Of a stretch of DNA of 64,000 bases, positions 45,961 through 59,900 are shown piece after piece. The stretch covers positions 1,364,001 through 1,428,000 of the forward strand of contig OY253669.1 in NCBI GenBank assembly GCA_958009085.1, read 5' to 3'. Both the position numbers and the translations under genes were made by a program. The notes under the pieces were generated by a model. It searched no databases. It saw only the letters and a program-made list of their open reading frames with translations, and was not told the origin of the DNA. Origin of the DNA: Protoeuglena noctilucae. Its lineage: Eukaryota. Each line of letters begins with the position of its first letter. Position 1 is the first letter of the stretch.

Positions 45961-48421
45961 TCAGGCCGCCGTGTCCTCTAGGTTGATGTGCTCGAGGAGC
46001 TGGCTGCGGTGTCGCTCGTGCATGCTCCAGATCTCCATGACGCGGTCACGGTTGCGCTTGTATGCCCAGTTGGTGTACTTCTCCGAGAGTGCCTTGGCGC
46101 GCTCCATCTCGTTCCCCACCAGCTCCGCCTCCAAGTCGTCGATCTTGCTCGTGTTGGCCTCGTGGCACCCCGCCACCGCCCCCAGGAAGGCCTCCTTGTC
46201 GCGCACCATCGCCTCGATCTCCGGGTTGTTGTGCAGCGCTTCGTGGTTCACCAGCTTCGACTCCTCGGGCTTGTCCGACGCCATCTGCTCCAGCACCTCC
46301 ACCGCCTTCTCCTGCGACGCGTGCGCAGGGCTGCACGTGCCGCACACGCCGCAAGAGGCCGGGCCGCTCCCTGACAGCGCGCCCGCCCCGCACCTGCATC
46401 GACGCCAGCAAGTTCTGCTCCAGCTCGCGCACGTTCTGGAAGAAGTTGGAGATGAGGCTGCGGGAGCGCTCGGCCAGGGCGTTGTAGTTGCGGAAAAACT
46501 CCTCGTTGAGCTCCCGCAGGTTGTCGGACGTGTTCGACTCGATGTCCATCAGCTCCCGACTCAGCTCGTCCAGGCGGTCGAGCGGGACCTGCGCACACAG
46601 AGTGACTGCACGTCATCGCCCCACTCGCTCGGCAGCCTTGAGCGAGCCGCCCGCCCCCGCTGCCCCTCCAGCCCACGACCCCTCGCCTTGATCTTCGCGG
46701 TCGCCAGTTCCGGGTTCTTCTCCACCGCGTCGATCGTGTGCTTCTTAAGCCGCTCGAACTCCCGCACCAGCTCGCGCGACCGCGTGTCCCGCGCCCCCAC
46801 CAGCTTGTCGATCACGTCCTTGAACTCCTCGTGCTCCTTCTGCTTCTTCCGATGCTCCGCAAACATCTCCACTTTGAACCCCTCCACCTGCTGCTTGTAC
46901 TGGTCCTTGAACTCCCCGGTCTTGTCCGTCACGGACCCCACCTGGCTCAGCTGCGAGATGACAGGAGGGGCGTGGCCACGGTGTCACCACGACCACGAAT
47001 GCAACCGCAGCGGTCGTCGCCCTCGGCTCAGACCGACTGGTGCAGGGGCCTGGACACAGAGGGCAGCCACAGACGCATTGTGACGCGTGTCCAGGCTGCC
47101 GCACCTTGATGTAGTCCGTGTTGTCCCGGAGCATGTCTTCGAAAAGACTCTCCAAGCCCCACAAGTTGGCCTCCCGGAGCCTCGCCTCGTTCTTGCGGTT
47201 CTGCGCGGCAGGAGCGGACCATTGTGGCGGCCCCCACGCTGGCCAGGGTGAAGCAAAGGCAGACAGTGGTGCAGCCACCGCCTGAGGCCATTGTCTACAA
47301 CCAGCAACCATCGTTGCTCTGCTCCTGGGCCCCCACCGCACCTCCTCTGCCTGCTTGAGCATTTGCCGCTCCTCCTCCTCCCTACGCCTCTGGGCCTGGT
47401 TGACGTCCAGGTGCTGCTGGATGGCCGCGTCGAGCTCCTTCGGATCCACGCGCCGGAAGTCCAGGTACACGAGCTTGCTCAGATAAGCCAGGATCATCCA
47501 CTTGTAATCGTCGCGCTTGCTGATGGGGTTGTCTTGCAGGTTAAGCAGCCTCAGGTTCTTGAAATTGGACAGATAGGCGGCGACTGCGGGCAGGAGGACA
47601 GGCCGTGAAGCCCGGCACGGAGCGAGGAGTGGGACATCCGTTGCGGTCCGCATGCCTCCGCATCGGCTCACCTGTGGCCACCTCGGGCGGCGGCTGGCCG
47701 GGCTTCCCGCGGCCAATCTTGTTGTTGGCGATGCTGAGGACGTTCAAGTTGACCAGCGAGTCGAGGTTCTCGAGCTCCCCGATCTCGTTGTGCGTGAGGG
47801 ACAGGTCCTGCAGCTTGGTGAGCTTGTCCAGGCCCCGAATCTCCGTGATCTGGTTGAAGCTCAGGTCCAGCCACGTCAAGTTCGTCAGATGCTCCAGGTT
47901 CTCGATCTTCGTGATGACGTTGTTGTCCAGCTGCAACTTGGTGAGGCGCGTCAGGCCGTCCAGGTTCTCAATCTTCCTGCGCAGCGCCGGAGCGAGTCGC
48001 CCATTTCGCGAGCGCAAAGCTTTTGGCCCGTGGCAGCTCTCCGCGCCGACAGGTCCCCGTCAGGCAGGCTGTGCGCGGAGCGATGCGGAGCCACGATGCC
48101 GCCCCGGCCCTCACTTGATGTTGCAGAAGCTGAGCGACAGGTTCACCACGTCCGAGAGCTTCATCGTCCGACGCTTCTCTTCCCGCTTTTCTGCCAGCCC
48201 CTCGACCTGAGGATCGCGGCGCGGCGGAGACGTTGCCCGCAGCATGTCCGTCGGAAGTGTGCGCGGCAGCGGGACCCGAGCGCAGGTCTCGGGCGCCAAG
48301 CATACGCACGCATACCTTGCTCGGGTACATCGACCTCCCAGGCGCTCACCTCGATCCCGTGGCGGATGATGGTCTCCGTGATCACATTGTGCACGTCCTC
48401 CTCGCTCACGGCCGTAACCAT
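45961..48421 (-). CDS. DRC3: Dynein regulatory complex subunit 3 (LRRC48/FAP134)
   Basis: [52 protein letters not shown]s, LRRcap YLDFRRV, EANL..LFEDM, coiled coil ending RNRDRVMEI. Confidence 0.9.
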
Positions 48422-49113
48422 GGTCGCAGAGCTCCCGTTCCCAGATTCTCGACAGAGACAAATGCAACCTCAAACGGTGCCCGCCATGCCACGGTTTCCG
48501 CGGCCGCGCCGGGCCCCCCGCCTGCGGCCGCGCAAAAGTTCGCCGTCGTCCAGGCCGCAGCAGCCTCACTTGCACTCCCAACAGCTCTGTCCGATCAAAA
48601 AGGGCTCCGCAGTTGGTCCTCAGCTATGCGGCAGCCGGGGCACGGGCAAGGAACGCGCGGACATGTCACCTTCTCGTCCCTGCCCCGCCCAGCCAGCTGT
48701 TTCACCAGGACAAAGGGCCAGGCTGGAGTGTGATACGACGACAGTCCAACGCTTGCCAGGGCTGGCAGTTCGCGATGCCCACCGGACCGCACTGGCTGCG
48801 AGTGTCAACCCAGAAAGTTGCCTGGTCTTTGAACGGCCACGCACAGCAGGATACGCTGAGGACAGAGCTGTTTGGCGAGTGGTGGTCGTGAATGAGAAAT
48901 CTTCAAGCCCGTCAGCTGTGCCGTCCCCCCGTCAGACCGTGATGCAGCACAAAGTCGTTTTCCTCATTTCTCGAAGCTCGCGCTCGACCCCACCTCACAT
49001 GTTCTCACACGACCCTGCTCCTGCTCTTCATGCATGTTCTCAATGCGTTCATCTCGTGTTTGGTAGCAGTTCTGTTTTATCCTTGCGAGAAGCGCGGGGC
49101 AGCATCGCCTGAA

Positions 49114-49482
49114 ATGAGTCATGCTCAGTCACTCGCTACACTTGTGCGCAGGGCTGCCAAGCAGGTGACGCGCTGGGTGCGGGGAGGGCCGTGTTCGGGG
49201 CGTGCGCACGTCCGAGCTGTGCGCAGCCCAGGAGCAGCCAGCTGGGCGGCAAAGGGATTAAACCCCGTGCAACAGCATTCGTCTCGGAGCTGGCACCGAC
49301 AAAGTCGTGAATTGCCCTCTGCGCAGGTCTGGGCGATCATTCGTTTCCTGCTCGACGAATTTGAGCCGTGGCTTAAGTGGCTGGTCTTCGACGCGGTGCT
49401 ACGCCTTGTCGTTGCATGGCTGATTTCGAAGAGCGAGCGGCTCCGGTCCTTCTTCGGAATGCTGGGCTTCTCGGACTTGTGA
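49114..49482 (+). CDS. Small (~68 aa) hydrophobic protein, 2 exons, immediately upstream of ATG10
   Basis: MSHAQSLATLVRRAAKQ|GTGACG...GCGCAG|VWAIIRFLLDEFEPWLKWLVFDAVLRLVVAWLISKSERLRSFFGMLGFSDL*; phase-0 GT-AG intron 49165-49326. Confidence 0.6.
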   Translation: MSHAQSLATLVRRAAKQVTRWVRGGPCSGRAHVRAVRSPGAASWAAKGLNPVQQHSSRSWHRQSRELPSAQVWAIIRFLLDEFEPWLKWLVFDAVLRLVVAWLISKSERLRSFFGMLGFSDL

Positions 49483-49500
49483 CGAGTGAGCCCAGCCGCC

Positions 49501-50488
49501 ATGCAGCCTGGCCAGGCGTCCCTGGGGCCCTGGGAGTTCCCGGAGGCGTGTCGCACCCTGCAGCGTCTTTGGGGGGAACGGTCTGCTGCCGGCGGGAGGC
49601 CCCACGATGCGGCGGGGGCCGGGGGGGGTCGGGACGTGGCGTGGCGGTTCGTCACGGACCCTTTGGCGCCCGCCGGAGGGTACCTGCGCGGCGACGCTGT
49701 CGCCGGCAACCTGCCGGTATCGGCGGAAACCTCGGGCGACGACTCGCGCGCGGCGCGGTGCGGCGAGGGGGACGCCCCGACGACCACGGCGGGCCCCGCA
49801 TTGGACCAGGACGCCGCGACAGCCTCGCCGGGCCCTGCGAGTCGGCGATGCCTGTGGCAGCTCAGCGTGTGCTACAGTGAGACGTACATGGCTCCCGAGC
49901 TCTACTTCCTCGCTTGCACAGTGAGAGGCAGATGGCATTGTGCAGGCCGTAGGTCCCAGCCCTGAGAGCTCCGACACCTGTTCGCTCTCCACTCTTGCAC
50001 CGGCGTGTCTGATGGTCATGGCGCCAGTCTTCCCTATTTCTTGCAGGAGGATGGGGTGCCGTTGCCATGGCAAGACACGGAGTCGCTGTTGGGCCCCTCC
50101 TACCGAGAGGAAGCAGCCAGGCCTGACGCTGACGGGGCCTTTCTGCACCCGGCGCGGCACCCGAGGCTGCCCGTGACCATGTTTCGCGTACACCCATGTC
50201 AGGTGCGGCGCGCGACCACGGGAGGCGATTGAACGAGGGTGGGGCTCATAGACTCTGGTCGTCGCCGTTGTTGGTCTCGGCTTGAGGACACAAAGCAGGT
50301 ATTGGCGTATATTGCCGCCCCCGCAGACGGCCTGGGTCGTGGGGTTGCTCCTGGCGCAAGGGGCGGATGGCGCGGTCGCTGACCAGACGCACCCTCACGA
50401 GGGGTACATGAGGGCCTGGGCGAGCGTTTACCTGGCCGTCCTGGGTCTGAGCCCACCGATGGAACCAGAGGTTGAAGAAAGGCACTGA
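49501..50488 (+). CDS. ATG10: Ubiquitin-like-conjugating enzyme ATG10
   Basis: EFPEAC N-terminus, VCYSETYMAPELYF, HP..FRVHPCQT catalytic HPC motif, YMRAWASVY..LGL; GCCGCC-ATG start context. Confidence 0.88.
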
Positions 50489-50656
50489 CTCGTCACCGCA
50501 TGCCGTCCTCTACGCGCGCGCTGTGGAAGCGGCTGGCTCTGCGTCTCAGCGCCATCATGCATCAATCAAAGATAATAGCTAGCTAGCCCTAATCCAGACG
50601 TCAGAAGAGAAGGAATGGTTCCGCGCACTATGCCAGGAGTGGCGTACTGGCCCCCG

Positions 50657-51391
50657 TCACGCTTCTGGCAGCACAGCCATGGCTTCCCCTTCCACCAGCA
50701 CGGGCCCCCGCGCCTGTCCGTCCCACGCATAGCATCGCGTCGCGAACCGCGCCGTGCGCCCCACCCTGCGGACCACCGACACCTCCGCGACGACGTCCCT
50801 CCCGACCTCGCAGGGCGCTCGGAAGCGCAGCGTCTGCGAAGCGTACACGGCGCCGGGGTAGGTCGACCCGATGATGGCGGGGAACGTGGAGGCCAGGAGG
50901 AGCCCGGGCACGATCTTGGCGGGACGCCCCACAGCGTCCTGCGCGCCAGCGACGGGGAACTGGCTGCCCGACGCCCGCAGCGCACTTGTCGCGGCAAGTG
51001 CGTGGGCGAGCAGAGCCGGGTCACTTGTTCCCGACGAGCTCCTGTCCTGACGTCGCTGTGGAGCGAGTTGAAGTCCCCCGTCAGCCAGACAAACGCGTCG
51101 ACCTCGTCCTGCGTGAAGCGCCTCCGCATGTGCAGCGCGAGACCTTCCCGTGGGGAGCCTGCTGTGCTGCACTCGCTCGATGCGGGGCCGTCCTCCTGCA
51201 TGCAAAAGGCCTCCGCTTTCCCTCTCGCGCCAGCCCAACTTCGTGGCTGCGGGCACCCACCAAACCATCGCTCCCCTCCTGTGGCTCGCCTCGCTCTCAT
51301 CGGGACCCGAGGATCCCCATCGCGCCGCTGGATCGCTAATGAAGTACCCTCTGGCCCTCCAGACCCTCGCGGCTCGTCGACAGCGGAGCAT
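50657..51391 (-). CDS. MaoC-like hot-dog dehydratase (HTD2-like, probably mitochondrial; start uncertain)
   Basis: RRFTQDEVDAFVWLTGDFNSLHSD, IVPGLLLASTFPAIIGSTYPGAVYASQTLRFRAP, VLVEGEAMAVLP; Arg-rich MLRCRRAAR candidate presequence. Confidence 0.85.
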   Translation of the reverse strand: MLRCRRAARVWRARGYFISDPAARWGSSGPDESEASHRRGAMVWWVPAATKLGWRERESGGLLHAGGRPRIERVQHSRLPTGRSRAAHAEALHAGRGRRVCLADGGLQLAPQRRQDRSSSGTSDPALLAHALAATSALRASGSQFPVAGAQDAVGRPAKIVPGLLLASTFPAIIGSTYPGAVYASQTLRFRAPCEVGRDVVAEVSVVRRVGRTARFATRCYAWDGQARGPVLVEGEAMAVLPEA

Positions 51392-51756
51392 GGGCGACCA
51401 GTCCCGCGGATGTCCATCGCTGAGGCTACGTTGGTGAAGATGTCGGCCGATACTCGGCGGCTACGGACGACAGGTCAGGCAAGAGCTGCGAAGAGACCGC
51501 AGATGTCGGCTGCCGGGTCGCAGAGAGCACACTTTGGCCTGCGCGCCGCCAGATGGCCCGAGTCAGGCCCCTCCTCGCTCGGGGCAAGCGGGTTCGCCGA
51601 CCTCTGATCAAACCAGTCGGCTCAAACGTTTTCCAGCCTTGCGACTGGATCACAGCCTTGACCTCTTCTGGTCGCGTTCGCGTGATTGAGTGCCTCTGGC
51701 TAGTTATCCCACCCTCGGAGCTCTCCCGGGCGGAGCTCGATATTTGAGCGGCGAGG

Positions 51757-54700
51757 ATGTCGCTCTCGTCGGAGGTCGTCGAGCTGGTGGGGCTGCTGGG
51801 GCACAAGCAGCACCTGGAGAGGCAGAAAGCTCAGGAGAAGCTGCAGGGCTTGATTGACAGGCAAGCGATCGCGGCTCTGTGCTCGCTCTCGGTTTCCTGG
51901 CTATGTAGTTGGATTTGGCTGTGGCGCCCGCCATGCACTCGGCTCGTGGTGTGAGGAAATCTGGGGGAACCACGGCTGCGGCAGTTGGCGCGCCCCCGCG
52001 CCGCTGGCATCGGAAATCGGCGGCCGCGATGCGCCTCGTGACGCAACTAATGTGAGTGGCGCAGGGGCGAGGTCGACCTGCGCGTGGAGGCCGTGGCTGG
52101 GGAGCTCGTGCAGCGTTTCGAAGGGATGATCCAGGTGCTTGCGCCGGCTCTTGGGAGTCGCGGCTGCAGTTGCGCAAATTGGCATGTCAGCTGTCGCACA
52201 GGACGCAACTGCGGATCCGTGTCAGCGGGCCGCGCTGTGCGGACGTGGCATGGGGCGCGGGCTCGACCGTCGCGCTGGTTTCCCGCCAACTCCGAATGAG
52301 CTGCAGCCCGCCGCTTTCGCGTCGCAGTCGGAGAGGTGGGAGGACCGCCTGGGCGCGTTCACGGGCTTCACGATGACGGCGCCCGTGCACCACCCTGACG
52401 CCTTCATCGTCTCGGTCATTGAGCACTGCATGCGGTTTTTGGAGGACAGGGAGCCGCGCGTGAGGTGAGAGTGCGCATGTACGCAGCCATAGCTCGATGC
52501 ACGGCCTTCGTTGGTCAGCCCACGAGCGATCCAGGCCACCGCCGGTGGTTGCAGGCTCGCGATCGCCGAGTGCCTGGGCGCGCTCTCCCGCGTGGCCGGT
52601 CTGCGTGTCCCGGAGCTGTGCCTGTCCCGCGTGATCGACTCTATCCGGACCAACTTCGACCGCGACAACGCCGAGCCGTCGTCCGAGCTGGCGCGGGGCG
52701 ACGACCGGGGCGACTCGGCAGCGGTCGACGGCGCCGGGGAGGGGGGCGACGACGTCGTGGGGGAGCTCTTGGGCGCGGCGTACGCGACGCCGCTGCCCGG
52801 GCGAGGGGAGCTGCGGCACGGCACTGGTGAGCTGGCGCGGCAGCCGCACAGGCCTGCATGCCGCCAGGACGGCACACGAGCGGAGCGCAGCCAGGTGCTT
52901 TGTCCGACCTCGTGCCATCCACATGCGCGTGCCCTGCCCCTCCTCTCCTCGCAGAGGGCTGGAAGTGCCTGGAGACGTCGTGCCGGTGCCTTCAGCACAT
53001 GATGCAGGGTGTGGGCCACGCGTTCCGTCCTCTGGCCACGGACGACCTCCGGGCGGTGGTTTACCGCTCGCTCCTGCACCCCAACCGCTTCGTGCGCGAG
53101 AGCGGGTACTTTGCCCTGGGCGCGATGGTGGAGACGTTCACGGAGGAGGCCATGGAGACGCTCGGAGTGGAGGTGGCCACCCGGATCAGATGAGTCGCTT
53201 GCTAGCTCTCGCTTTCCAAGCACATCTCGGCCCGCAGTCGCGCTGTGACCTCGTCGTGATGCGCCGACGTGGCGCGTGCGCCCGCGCTGACCACGCCCTC
53301 GCCTCGCGCCCGCACGGACGGCCTGTCGGACAACTGGTCGCAAGTGCGCTTCGCGTCGTCGACGGCGGCGAGGTGCTTCATGACCTCGGCCACCCCGGCT
53401 GTCAAGGAGCGCACGTACCCCATCCTGCTGCCCGGCATGTGCCTGAACCGCTACTACGTCGCGGAGGGCGTGCGGCTCTACTCCCAGCAGAGCTGGCGCA
53501 TGGCGGTGGGGTCCGAGGGCCGCGCTCTCGTGGCCCGATTCGCGGCTGAGGTGGTCGACTACTACGTCGAGCAGTCCAAGGCAAACAACCACGCCGTACG
53601 GGAGGCCGCGTGCGCGTGCATGGCGGAGGTGAGCGCATGAAGACTGCCCAAGGAGACTAGTGGGCGAAGGGTCAGGGCCAGTGGGCCGCGTGGCGCACTG
53701 CCCGCCCCTGCGCTGCACTCGACTGCACCCGCTGCGCCCCTGCCCGCAGCTGATGGCCAAGGTGGACCGCGCTGCCGTCGCCCCGCACGCGCCGCGCATG
53801 CTCCGTGCGCTCGTCAACTGCTTCAAGGACGACTCGTGGCCGGTGCGCGACGCCTCGTGCACCGCGTGCGGTCGGTGCGTGGAGGCGTGCCCTGAGGAGT
53901 CCAAGGAGGTTCTCCCGGAGCTGCTGCCGCTGTGGATCGCGCATCTGTGGGACAACATCCCTACCGTGCGACAGAACTCGGCCCAGGCGTTGGGCAAGGT
54001 CTGCCAGGCGTACGGCGCCGATGCCATCGCGACGTGCTGGCAGGCCGTCGACGAGCTCCTCCCCAAGGCCTTCGACCAGCCCAGGCGAGACAGCATGGGC
54101 GATGCTGCTTGGTGGTGCCACTGCGGGTGTCGACTGTTCGGGGTCATGACATGGCAGGAGCGCGGAGGGCGTCGCACGTGCCTGCGACGTGGTACAGTCA
54201 TGCTCGCCATGCGACCGCGCGAACGCGTGCTCTCGTGGTCCGCAGCGAGTCCAAGAAGTACACCGGCCTCGACAACATCACGTCCTTCGGCGTGGCGGGC
54301 ATGCGGCGCATCCGGGCCAACGACCTCGACATCCACACCAACCAGCAGATGTTCAGCTGCGGGAGCCTCGCGCCCAAGCTCCAGCGCGGCGGCGGGTGCA
54401 TCGACCACGGCTTCAAGCGCGAGCAGGCGAGCGTGGGAAAGGGCAGGGCCCGGTCGAGCAATCGCCTCGCGTGCCGAGCCAGCTGCCGCCCCACCCCACC
54501 GCACCTCACCTTACCTCTCCGCCCTGACTCAGGAGCCCTGGGAGGCGTCGGACGGCGCCGTGTGGCTGCTGCTGGAGCTGGCCCCGGTGGACCCGGCTGG
54601 TGCCGAGAAGCGCCTGGGGACCTTGGCCCAGCTGGCGGGCCTCGACACCTTCATGCACGCGTACGCGCTGAAAGAGACCGTGTTCAAGGCGCTGCCGGGG

Positions 54701-55003
54701 ATCGCGCGCGCGGTGGGCAAGCGCGCCTTCAAGTCCCACCTGGAGGAGATCCTCCCGCCGGCGTTCCGGGCCCTGACGTCAGGGCACCAGCTGGCGGAGT
54801 TCGCGGCGGGGCAGTGCCTGGGGTTCATCCGTGACATGATAGGGCCCAACATCCTGGCGGGGAGGCTGAGCGAGGAGCAGGCCGCGCTGCTGCGCACGTC
54901 GCCCCTCGTACCGCCCTCGTCCACGTTCGGGGCCGGCGCTGGCGCGAGGGCCGCCATGGGTGGCGACGGCGTTCCTGCACCGTCGGCGCTTCGGGTGGCG
55001 TGA
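51757..55003 (+). CDS. Uncharacterised HEAT/ARM-repeat protein, 8 exons
   Basis: HEAT-like units ending LEDREPRVR, LLHPNRFVRE, LSDNWSQVRF, SKANNHAVREAAC, FKDDSWPVRDA, LWDNIPTVRQ; one intron must be AT-AC. Confidence 0.82.
53190..53315 (+). other. AT-AC intron with U2-type consensus inside the HEAT-repeat gene
   Basis: AG|ATGAGT...GCTGAC...CCCGCAC|G; removal restores ATRIR-DGLSDNW; no AG between the in-frame stop (53257-53259) and the next exon. Confidence 0.8.
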
Positions 55004-55304
55004 GAACAGACGTCGGGCTTGAATTGTTCCAGGCACCGTCACATCGAAACACGAACGAGACGCGGCAGTCTAGGGAAAGGGAAACGCTGCACCTAGGAGG
55101 ATGGGTGGGGTCGTAAGGCGTGGCGGGCGGGGGGGAGTAGCAACGCCTCTAAGCCCGCCTGCGCCACCAACCGCGACCAAACGCGGCGGGATATAACGAG
55201 GGACGCGGTATGCAGCTCCCGCTCCTCTGCTGTAGAACGCCCGGGCCACGGCGGGCATGGGGCACCGGGCATAGCTGACGCGCGCGTTGGCTGTGCTGGC
55301 GGCA

Positions 55305-56688
55305 TCAGGCGCCGTAAGGGAACCGCGCCTGCACCGAGTCCTTGTTGTCAGGGTCCATGTCCATGTCCGTCCAGGAGAACTTGATGCCGTCCGCCACCTC
55401 CTGCATAACACAGCGCACATGGTCATCCATGTGCTTGCGCCTCCCCAACACCGGGAAGTCCGCCCCTGCCAGGCACGACAGCTCGACACACACAGAGCCG
55501 GGCCACGCACGCGACGACACATTCCGATCGCGATGAGCATTGAATGGAGGCCCCAAACGCTCACCTCTGCGTTCTCCATGTTCTTGAGCGAGGCACGTGC
55601 CTGGGGCCGCACACGCTTGACGGGGATGTTGACCGAGTAAATCGTTCCCATCTCGGGATCGCTGGTCACGTTGATGTCCACGTTGTCTGCAGCGGGAGGG
55701 GAGGGAGCCGGCGTGAGAAGCGCCGCGTGGCGACAGCAGGGAACGCGCAAACGTCCAAAGCGCACCGAGGCTCTCGACGTCCACGAAGCTCTGCAGCGCC
55801 CGGAGCACCGACTCCTTCATCATCTCCATCGATCCCGGCGAAAGCCCGCACCGGTCGGCCACCAGAATCATTCGAAGCCTGCAGCAATGGGCGGGCAGGG
55901 TTGCGCCCTTGGGCCAGAGCGCGGCGGGGCCGGGCTGCTGCTCGAGCGGTGTCAACACTTGCCTCTTCTTCACGTCGTCCTTCGGGGTCGACTTGGGCTT
56001 TTCCGGGAAGAAGATGGACCACGCGGCCGCAATCTGCGCGGGAGGGGGCGCACGTGTTGGATAGCTGCCCCGCCCGCTGCGGGAACCGGAGCGCGCGAGC
56101 CCCGCAAGCGCAACCTTCACCTTCTTGAAAAACAGGTCCACTCCCTTCGCGTCCCCAAAGTCCACCTTGACCGTCGGCTTGTTGCTCGCTTCGACACGCA
56201 CCCGAAACGCAGCGGAGCGCGCGGCCAAGGCCGCCCCTGCGGAGCCGGTGGATTGCGGGAACTCGCGGACGGCAGCTGGCATCCGTGAGGGGCAAGGAGG
56301 GCGGAGAAAGGATCGTTGCGGATCGTTTGAGCGCCCGGCGTTGGCCACCCCACGGGACAGGCCCGATGAGCTCACGGCGATCGCCGGGGGCCTGCTTCAG
56401 GGCTCGAAATCGACACGCCGACCAAGAACGCTACGAACGACCGCTGGGCGAGTGCCGTGACGAAGAACCGTTGGCGTTGTTGCGCCCCGGCCCCAACAAG
56501 GGACACGGCAGGTCGACGCAGGCGGCGTCGGGAGGGCGTGGCAAGGCAAGAGGGAAAGCGCTTCAATTTTTTGCGGATCCCGATCCCGCACCTGTCCGTG
56601 GGAAGGGCGTGGGGGCCGCTCTTCTCTGCACGGCGTGGCCGAGCGAGGGCCTCGCGCCCGCGCCCATCGCGCGGGCCACGGGAAGCAT
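55305..56688 (-). CDS. minE: Plastid division topological specificity factor MinE (first exon tentative)
   Basis: AWSIFFPE, KKRLRMILVADRC, MKESVLRALQSFVDVE, VDINVTSDPEMGTIYSVNIPVKRV; transit-peptide-like start. Confidence 0.9.
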
Positions 56689-56941
56689 TGCAGTGGCAGT
56701 GATCCGATGCCCGTAATGGGTGCGTCGCTCCCGGACGCGTCGGCTGCACAAAGCGAATGCGACGCCGTTTACCGGCGATGCAACGCCAGTCTCGCCGTTT
56801 CTTCTTGAGAACGAAGCGCCTTCGTCAAGTAATGGCTCAACAAGCACCCCTGGGACTGGGACCTAAGCTGGGGGTCCCCGGGCAGCGACCGTTGGCACTG
56901 CATCATCTCCCTGCCGGGGATATCGAACCAGGCGGCGCGCG

Positions 56942-59900
56942 ATGAGGGTCACGTTCAGAGAAGCCTGCGAGTTCCTAGGCTTATCGGTGAGCCGGGCTCG
57001 GCGCTGGGTCGGGGGCCGCACGGGCGGTGAGCACGGGCGCCCTGCTGTGCCTCGAAGGACGCTGCGGGAGCGCTTGAGGCGTCCGCGCCGCAACGTCGCC
57101 TCCGCGCATCGAGGCTACTTGCTCTGAGTCGGGGAGGCATTGGGCGCTGCACCGAGGACGGCGAGCGAGCGCGGGCTGCGCCAGCGCGCGGGGCTCGCAT
57201 CCCATGAGCGCGCGCCCGCGCCGCTGCGGCAGCCGTGCTAGGCTGCACCGAGCTGTATCCGTTTCTTGTCGTGGCGTCAATGCCTGCGCCCCGCTGCCTC
57301 GCCGCGGACTGCGCACTCGGCACCCCGTGGGTCGTCGCAGGAGGATGCCCAGCGCTCGGAATTCGAGTCTGCGTTCCGCCGCATGGCGTTGAAGTACCAC
57401 CCTGATAAGGTGCGGACCGAGACCGCGGCTTGCGCGCGGGCCAGGATGGGCGTGGGAATGGTTCCACTGCGCAGGCCCCGGGAACTTCTTGCATTGCAAT
57501 CCCCGCCGATCGACCCACGCCACGTCGCCCGACTGTTCCCATTGCAGGGGGGATCCGAGGGCGATTTCAAGCACCTGCAAGCATGTATCGAGAGGTGATG
57601 TGCGCGGACGCCAGTGCGCTCACTCGCGCTCCCCTTTGAGGCGCGCCTTGAGGAGCCAAGCGACGCATGAATCGCTGCCCAGACGTGCGATGCGACACTG
57701 CACTCGTCTGCCTGCCGCAGGGTGCGCCGTCACTTTGAGGCGCCCTCGAGGCCGGCCCCCGCCTACAAGGGCTTTGGCGAGACGGAGAGCGAAGACGATG
57801 AGGATTACTACGACGATTACGATTCCGAGGAGGACGTCGAATTCGATTTCCCCTTCTTCTCGTTCGACAACTTCATGGATTACATCCAGGGGGTGAGGGG
57901 TGGGGAGGCGTGCGCGTGACGTGGCCCACCCGGGGCCCTGTGCGGACGTGGCAAGCGCGGCACCGTCCGTCGCCTGCTCTCGCGACGTCGCTCGGGGTTC
58001 CCCCCCGCAGCTGTTCGGGGCTTCCGGGGGCCGTGGCTTCCCGGACTTCACCGGCCGTGGGGGTGACGGGCGCGGTGGGCGGTTCGCGCAACGCAAGGCG
58101 GAGCGGGAGGCGGCCAAAGCGAGGAAGAAGACCAAGAACACCACGTGCGAAGGTGCGCGAGGGGATCTTATGAGCGCGCTGTGTGTTACGTGCTGTGCCT
58201 CGTTTGACCCCACGTGATGCTCCCGGCCCCTGGTGACGGGGGGGTGCCACTGACCGCCCCACTCGCCCACCTGCCCCTCCTGCAGAGGACGAGGCGATGA
58301 AGCAGCGCGGCGAGAAGATCAAGCAGGCGATGATGTACGAGAAGCACATCCAGCAGTGGCTCGGCACGCTGCCCCTGCCCTGGGCGCGTGTGAGGGGCGA
58401 CACGAGCCTGACCGTGGTGTGGGACAAGCGGGGGACCCGGCACCCCGGCTACCTGCTGGGCGCGAGCTGGGCCGTGCAGTGGCGCGAGGCGGGGGCGGCG
58501 CCCGGCGGTGCGTGGGCCGAGGGGCCCCACGCTTCCGGCGTCGACATGGTGGACGGGTGGCTGCAGCGAGAGCTCCCGGTATCTCAGGAGGATTTCAAGA
58601 TTCCCGACCTGCAGCCGGGCACCAAGGTGCGGATATCCCTTGCCATTGCCGCGCGCGCTCGGATCGTGCTCTGACAGCTCCGTGCTGCGGCGCGTGCTGA
58701 CGGGAACGTGCCGTGGGCGTCCGTCCGTGCTCCCTTGCAGTACCTGGTCCGCACGAGGCCCCTGTACCGGGTGCCGGACGACTGGGAGTTCGCGGGGATG
58801 GTCAACGTCCCGAAGAGCGCCTCGTGGTCTGAGACGCTGACGGTGTCGACGACGGGGGTGGCACGGAGCGCGGCCCAGGCACCCGCAGCCGGGGCAGCCG
58901 CTGGGCAGGTGAGGGCAGTTGCTGGCTGTTTGCGCGAAAGCGCAGGGCATGGTGTTTGTCAGGATGTTGCTGGGGCCAGCCTGCGCGTCGGGCACATGGT
59001 TGCTGACCATGACACTTAGACCTCGTTGGCTCACTCGCAGGCTGGATCTGGAAAGTCCCGCAAGAGGAAGGAGAAGAAGCAGGGCGCAGGGAACAAGGCG
59101 GGCGTGCGGACGCCAGCAGACGAGGCGGCCACTGCAGAAGAGGAGGCAGCAAAGGTGAGAGGCCAAGGGTGGTGGTTGGAGTGGGGCTGCCCAGGGTACA
59201 CGCCCTGTGCTGACACTGGTTGTATGCGTTCATACCTATGCTGACAGTGGGGCTGGTCGATTTGTTGACTAGCGCTCTCCATGCTCTGGGCATGACCCTC
59301 GGACATTATATCATCCTTGTATTTGGAATGAACTTTCCTGACTAAGCCTGACCCTCTCTGATCGTGTATGACCTCAGAGGGCGGAGGAGGAGGAGCGCCG
59401 CAAGCGTCGGCAGGCGGGTCTGCTGGCGGCGATTGAGCGGGACTACCAGAAGGACCTCAAGGCGGTGCACAAGGACGTCAAGACGGCGGAATTCAAGACC
59501 AAAGCCAAGGCGAGGGGCGCTGCTGGGGACGAGGGGTGGCAGGATGGCTGGGAGCTGGCTTGGGGTGTCGGGGGTCTGTCCCACATTGTAGCGATTGCCC
59601 TGAAGACCACCTGGCGTCGCCGTGTGTGCAGGAGGAGAAGCGGAGCGATCGCCTGGACGCGCAGATCCCCGGGCAGGGGCAGGGCAAGGGGAAGAAGGTG
59701 CGGGGAGGGTTTGGGAAGATGCGAAGCGCCGGTGCGGCTTGCTGCTATTGTTGCCTGTTCCTGTTTGTCTATCACTGCAACTCCACCCGACATAATTGCG
59801 TCCTGCACCTGTTTGCCTGTCGCCGTTCGTCTCAGGGCGCCGACGTGGCCCAGCCGACGGTGGGACGGACGGAGAACTGGCGGGAGCTGCTGCAGCGTGC

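Follow-up and report, generated by a model that had tools for sequence, protein, structure and literature searches.

The HEAT-repeat gene and its fifth intron

The 64-kb window analysed here (the whole stretch of Protoeuglena noctilucae contig OY253669.1 under study, with a G+C content of 63–70%) carries on its plus strand a gene for a HEAT-repeat protein, whose nine exons, joined from the ATG at 51757 after removal of all eight RNA-supported introns, form a frame of 705 open codons closed by a stop at 55001–55003. The fifth intron of this gene starts with AT and ends with AC, and the 705-codon frame is kept open only when it is taken out. Direct transcript evidence and homology together indicate that this is no chance pattern but almost certainly a real AT-AC intron, and the reading favoured here, with a probability of roughly 0.87, is that of a genuine intron of the nine-exon gene in a G+C-rich marine chlorophyte alga, spliced by the major (U1/U2/U4/U5/U6) spliceosome. 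The features of the locus are collected in Table 1.

Table 1. Features of the HEAT-repeat gene and of its AT-AC intron, in window coordinates (nt, nucleotides; a raised dot marks the exon–intron border)
Feature	Position	Strand	Description
HEAT-repeat gene, coding span	51757–55003	+	9 exons, 8 introns, 705 codons plus stop; exon joints from RNA contigs
Intron 1	51861–52064	+	GC-AG
Intron 2	52135–52327	+	GT-AG
Intron 3	52465–52554	+	GT-AG
Intron 4	52827–52954	+	GT-AG
Exon 5	52955–53189	+	ends ...CGGATCAG, phase 2; X2 record 12 and X4 record 16 cover 52954–53189, then jump
5' splice site of intron 5	53187–53195	+	CAG·ATGAGT; equals ordinary CAG·GTGAGT except for A at +1
Intron 5 (AT-AC intron)	53190–53315	+	AT-AC, phase 2; 126 nt, 70% G+C, ATGAGT start, CGCAC end
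Candidate branch site of intron 5	53286–53291	+	GCTGAC; putative branch A at 53290, 25 nt from intron end
Pyrimidine-rich stretch of intron 5	53292–53315	+	AG-free; ends CGCAC, equal to local (C/T)GCAG except for C in the last position
Exon 6	53316–53628	+	X4 record 16 covers 53316–53626, adjoining 53189 in the record
Intron 6	53629–53749	+	GT-AG
Intron 7	54085–54245	+	GC-AG
Intron 8	54427–54532	+	GC-AG
Intron outside the HEAT-repeat gene	55879–55962	-	GC-AG, RNA-supported

The frame of exon 5 reads CGG ATC AGA TGA, with the stop at 53191–53193, then meets two further stops and reopens with GAC GGC CTG TCG GAC AAC TGG from 53317. Within 53190–53330, AG dinucleotides occur only at 53193, 53204, 53219 and 53236, and the sequence is AG-free from 53237 up to exon 6; an acceptor at 53236–53237 would, on a by-hand reading, run into a TGA at 53257–53259. 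The first base of exon 6 completes the codon split by the AT-AC intron, and the conserved HEAT motif follows from DGLSDNWSQVR. Proteins of about 700 amino acids from green algae and many invertebrates are among the matches listed for exon 6, with identities over this exon of 74% for Chlorella ohadii and 77% for homologue P0002. The window model was aligned with 21 homologues picked from 120 listed (22 rows, used also for the tree discussed below): whole-length identity ranges from 36.5 to 66.9%, and the column at the exon junction is without a gap in 21/21 homologues.

The gene product is a HEAT-repeat protein according to significant Pfam matches of exon 7, both to HEAT (PF02985, 45.6 bits, cut-off 23.5, E 4.2e-12) and to HEAT_EZ (PF13513, 47.4 bits, cut-off 27, E 2.6e-12), and the same families are matched by homologue P0002; its resemblance in Pfam to DNAAF5-type repeats is weak and below threshold. 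Exon 7 also contains, at 53850–53900, a CxxCxxCxxxCP stretch matching Fer4 (24.3 bits, cut-off 21.1). This match is probably a spurious chance likeness inside a HEAT repeat, because the fourth cysteine of the candidate iron–sulphur motif is kept only in the window protein, P0002 and P0008 (3/22 aligned rows).

Transcript and DNA evidence

Positions 49000–58000 of the window were compared with three RNA runs (X1, X2 and X4, metatranscriptomes from three samples of one study) and with a DNA-like assembly, X8. A word search had returned RNA runs that contain 54–59% of the gene's sampled words, and runs that contain all of them. A joint from 53189 to 53316, which skips 126 letters with AT..AC ends and has no alternative placement (0 letters shared by both sides), is found in one X2 contig (depth 64.5) and in one X4 contig (depth 11.3), its shorter side being 236 letters long. 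In record 16 of X4, the segments 52954–53189 and 53316–53626 stand at adjoining record positions (1327–1562 and 1016–1326, respectively). The spliced contigs also carry, in the same sense, the neighbouring GT-AG joints 52825/52954 and 53626/53748, which fixes the strand of the AT-AC joint. A reading on the minus strand, where the joint would have GT..AT ends, was rejected because, in these contigs, the conserved frame and the adjacent GT-AG and GC-AG introns all lie on the plus strand.

The DNA letters at both ends of the intron can also be followed outside the assembly. Record 4 of X1 (53059–53516), from an RNA library, retains the intron and agrees with the window in every letter, the A of 53190 and the C of 53315 included, so that both bases have been seen in an environmental sample independently of the assembly. 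X1 yields unspliced pieces only, at a depth of 4–6, and is uninformative on splicing efficiency. Record 18 of X8 (184,970 letters) is identical over 49000–58000 and may be the window's own source. Across these 9 kb, differing letters or indels amount to zero in every run, and over about 1.6 kb of exon sequence the spliced contigs agree with the window without a single differing letter.

A preliminary description of this DNA, made from its letters, had claimed that removal of 53190–53315 as an AT-AC intron was required. Its statements on the stop, the AG positions, the GCTGAC motif and the resumption of the frame are all correct, and the removal is borne out by the 705-codon frame, the RNA joint and the gapless column in 21/21 homologues. 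The junction that it predicted, CGGATCAG-GGACGGCC, is the very joint read in the X2 and X4 contigs, and the assembly error that it wished to see excluded is contradicted by A 53190 and C 53315 in the X1 contig, no run showing G at these places.

Splice sites compared with those of other local introns

Of 21 joints, the 15 listed had their placement resolved, and these 15 are the RNA-supported introns compared here (10 GT-AG, 4 GC-AG and 1 AT-AC). In the following, the base of the AT-AC intron is given in brackets after that of the 14 others. At the 5' end, +1 is G in 14/14 (A), +2 is T in 10/14 and C in 4/14 (T), +3 is G in 12/14 (G), +4 is A in 10/14 (A) and +5 is G in 12/14 (G); at the 3' end, -5 is C in 9/14 and T in 5/14 (C), -4 is G in 13/14 (G), -3 is C in 14/14 (C), -2 is A in 14/14 (A) and -1 is G in 14/14 (C). 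The AT-AC intron thus carries the local majority base at all compared positions save the first and the last, and the exon side of its donor also has the local majority base from -3 to -1. This agrees with the preliminary description, which took both ends for usual local sites with paired terminal changes, G to A and G to C. The acceptor consensus of the 14 introns over 49000–58000 is (C/T)GCAG.

Under a leave-one-out matrix built from the local sites, with the terminal bases disregarded, the AT-AC donor obtained 6.31 bits and ranked 7/15, and the acceptor ranked 8/15. These middle ranks make the AT-AC intron a typical local site and not an exceptional one. Further inside the intron, the last 60 nt contain a single YTRAY motif, CTGAC, and pyrimidines make up 18/25 of the bases after the candidate branch A (hand count). 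Only 3/15 of the local introns have a YTRAY motif within this distance of their end.

Judged against U2-type AT-AC introns, the fifth intron has AT and AC ends established by the junction and a major-type donor, and is without U12 boxes; it also carries a candidate branch motif of the major type and a pyrimidine tract, spaced from the 3' end as is usual for them. How would the major spliceosome handle such ends? U1 would pair with CAG·AUGAGU at 8/9 positions, all but +1, and U2 would pair at GCUGAC, with A 53290, 25 nt before the intron end, as the branch nucleotide. The AC site would then be free of competition, because the intron is AG-free downstream of the branch. In the second step of splicing, the first and last intron bases normally make a non-Watson–Crick G-G contact, which would here be made by A and C in place of G and G. 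In yeast and human U2-type introns, a first-base change of G to A is rescued by a last-base change of G to C, although less efficiently (PMC1557818). The AT-AC intron may thus be viewed as an ordinary local GT-AG intron whose two terminal bases have changed together, in compensation of each other.

The intron site in related loci

In metagenome contigs, 22 homologous loci were found, 21 of them covering the intron site, which allowed the comparison with orthologous introns proposed in the preliminary description: among these 21 loci, none has an intron at the exact position. The site is read straight through in 17/21, including the closest locus, L001 (1438–3718, 71% amino acid identity), where residues 56–679 lie in one uninterrupted frame; this gene must therefore have almost no introns, and is without at least 7 of the 8 introns of the window gene. 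In L003 (2450–2520), an acceptor is found 5 nt upstream of the position of the AT-AC intron, and the intron that it closes is probably GC-AG. In L018 (~460), L019 (~1943) and L020 (~593), an acceptor lies 12 nt downstream. The window, L003 and L018–L020 thus show three distinct intron positions inside 17 nt of coding sequence. The AT-AC intron, whose position is common to no locus, appears to be lineage-specific.

An origin from an introner or a repeat was rejected, as no second copy of the AT-AC intron was found in the window or in the 22 related loci, the best other hits being 13-nt chance matches. In three distant loci (L013, L015 and L017), in-frame stops occur at conserved positions of the HEAT motif region, which would fit either TAA/TAG being read as an amino acid or decayed copies.

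Lineage and choice of spliceosome

In a maximum-likelihood tree of the 22 aligned rows, the window protein pairs with P0002, and the two are joined next by Pedinophyceae sp. YPF-701 (support 100/99); this group falls inside the chlorophyte clade (support 87/97), apart from streptophyte algae and animals. On this modest evidence, the organism is placed inside Chlorophyta. Published surveys report neither minor small nuclear RNAs (snRNAs) nor minor introns for Chlorophyta (PMC11347168), and neither U12 snRNAs nor a single U12 intron (0) for Chlamydomonas (PMC2846911); in green algae, minor introns are described only for the streptophytes Chara and Klebsormidium (PMC10639083). DROL1, an AT-AC-specific U5 protein, is likewise given as absent from Chlamydomonas in a preprint (bioRxiv 10.1101/2020.10.19.345900). 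A scan of the 64-kb window with Rfam at gathering thresholds returned 0 matches, which is uninformative on the rest of the genome. Because minor snRNAs and introns are reported to be lacking in Chlorophyta, and because the organism is placed there, use of the major spliceosome would be the best reading of the intron sequence and the published record.

Objections and alternative explanations

Several points weigh against a naturally double-changed intron removed by the major spliceosome. The type of spliceosome is inferred from the intron sequence and the published record, and the chlorophyte placement depends on a single gene tree. A GT-AG ancestor is assumed, while no relative has an intron at the exact place (21/22 loci covering it). 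The splice sites, with their middling ranks, fall short of the very strong compensating sites known from some introns of this type. A single study supplied both spliced contigs, and how efficiently the intron is spliced cannot be read from contigs. Finally, spliced RNA cannot reveal the intron ends of its own template, so that the link between the joint and the AT-AC letters rests on X1, a different sample.

The last of these points leaves room for spliced RNA made from another allele, either GT-AG or intron-less, or for an artefact of reverse transcription or assembly, the AT-AC copy then being a dead gene. Such an explanation would profit from the fact that the spliced evidence consists entirely of assembled metatranscriptome contigs of one study and that X1, where the AT-AC letters are seen, is unspliced only, but it is very improbable: the 0 differing letters over the exons and the lack of any variant letter in 49000–58000 argue against a second allele, and the AT-AC form is present in samples of the same study (X1). 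The joint shares no sequence between its two sides, unlike template-switch artefacts, and two random hits that give the exact rescuing A/C pair at the first and last base would be very unlikely in a dead gene, which is moreover otherwise intact over its 705 open codons. It is barely conceivable that the segment is removed without a spliceosome, for example by an endonuclease and a ligase acting on a structured RNA, as in transfer-RNA-type or IRE1-type splicing. The non-canonical ends and a length of 126 nt, a multiple of three, would agree with this; however, the fold of 53170–53335 (-62.4 kcal/mol) is no better than that of shuffled sequences (mean -66.8, z = +1.08, 172/200 shuffles folding at least as well), and donor, branch motif and acceptor match the spliceosomal consensus at every non-terminal position.

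A diverged U12-type AT-AC intron, spliced by a minor spliceosome retained in this alga, is very improbable as well. AT-AC ends are a classic hallmark of the minor class, but the donor ATGAGTCG matches the U12 donor ATATCCTT at 2/8 positions, through the letters AT only. The U12 branch box usually lies 10–26 nt from the 3' end. Here, the best match to TCCTTAAC has 4 mismatches and is at least 99 nt from that end, so that the intron has neither a U12-type donor, (A/G)TATCCTT, nor a TCCTTAAC branch box, in line with the preliminary description, which had found it not U12-like. Both ends also fit the local major-type consensus. Minor introns and snRNAs have recently been found in Chara and Klebsormidium, streptophytes once thought to be without them (PMC10639083), which would favour a minor-type intron; the gene tree nevertheless points to Chlorophyta, reported without minor snRNAs and introns (PMC11347168, PMC2846911). 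A relic of an ancestral U12-type intron, whose ends were kept after loss of the minor spliceosome, seems less likely still than the tolerant major spliceosome considered below.

GC-AG introns, neighbouring genes and annotation

GC-AG ends account for 4/15 of the RNA-supported introns listed, including 3/8 in the HEAT-repeat gene (a small sample), with the donors CAG·GC(A/G)AG or GAG·GCAAG. Elsewhere, they represent 0.4–0.9% in the SpliceRack species (PMC1557818) and about 2% (532/25,592) in Chlamydomonas expressed sequence tags (ESTs) (PMC2846911), and the local share, within the limits of this small sample, is far above both. With the AT-AC intron, non-GT-AG introns make up 5/15 of those listed in 9 kb, and this high non-GT share is a more unusual lead than the AT-AC intron itself. 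That the major spliceosome of this pedinophyte-like lineage shows unusual tolerance towards the first two bases of an intron is doubtful. If 5/15 held genome-wide, GC-AG would form a large share of all introns and AT-AC introns would number dozens or more, with the minor spliceosome absent; if the tolerance were true, the lineage would lend itself, as a natural system, to work on the way in which A...C ends are processed by the major spliceosome.

On the minus strand, the neighbouring gene at 55008–56600 has at least five RNA-supported introns, and its contigs show the highest word depth in the stretch (141.8 in X2 and 44.9 in X4). Open frames with leucine-rich repeats, by eye of the axonemal dynein-associated type, are found at 46745–48059, also on the minus strand.

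The practical weight of the AT-AC intron lies in annotation. Gene finders restricted to GT-AG and GC-AG ends cannot model the HEAT-repeat gene, and would probably cut it short at the TGA at 53191 or break it in two; further AT-AC introns in the same genome would run the same risk. Because the lineage is reported without a minor spliceosome, AT-AC ends are here no marker of minor introns.

Comparison with known AT-AC introns

The U2-type AT-AC class has been known since the 1990s. Full-text literature searches, judged by their listings, returned no description of pedinophyte AT-AC introns or of this HEAT-repeat gene, although survey supplements might list algal cases; a search on AT-AC introns in Chlorella and Chlamydomonas gave nothing relevant among the titles listed, and 'GC-AG' was mentioned in none of the matches listed for pedinophytes.

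The SpliceRack survey (PMC1557818) counted 24 U2-type AT-AC introns among 610,067 introns of five species: human has 15 of them, mouse 6 and Drosophila 3, C. elegans and Arabidopsis having 0 each. The same source reports that the AT-AC introns of SCN4A and SCN5A use the major spliceosome. Such animal introns (AT-AC II, as in human SCN4A and SCN5A) likewise have AT and AC ends, a major-type 5' site and no U12 boxes; their need for major snRNAs has been proven experimentally and they are conserved in vertebrates, whereas for the algal intron this need would be deduced, and the loci examined contain no orthologous intron.

A second comparison is with the 7 'other AT-AC introns' tabulated for Chlamydomonas reinhardtii, against 25,053 GT-AG and 532 GC-AG introns (PMC2846911). 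Like the intron described here, they have EST or RNA support, fail U12 criteria and occur in a chlorophyte without U12 snRNAs; they are given as table counts only, and the intron described here belongs to a different gene and a different lineage, the nearest named relative of the window protein being from Pedinophyceae sp. YPF-701. With U12-type AT-AC introns, by contrast, the algal intron shares its terminal dinucleotides only, as it has neither the ATATCCTT donor nor the TCCTTAAC box and belongs to a lineage reported without the minor spliceosome.

Another point of comparison is provided by the yeast and human suppression introns, ordinary in other respects, in which the first base was changed from G to A and the last from G to C, the pair also seen here. 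Those are engineered mutants with less efficient splicing; the algal allele occurs naturally, and its gene is expressed. Taken together, the fifth intron of the HEAT-repeat gene is a further, well-supported case of an established and very rare class; it changes nothing in the understanding of splicing and will not surprise a splicing specialist, but it offers a clean natural example, with transcript support, of an A...C pair compensating for the G...G pair in an otherwise ordinary intron.

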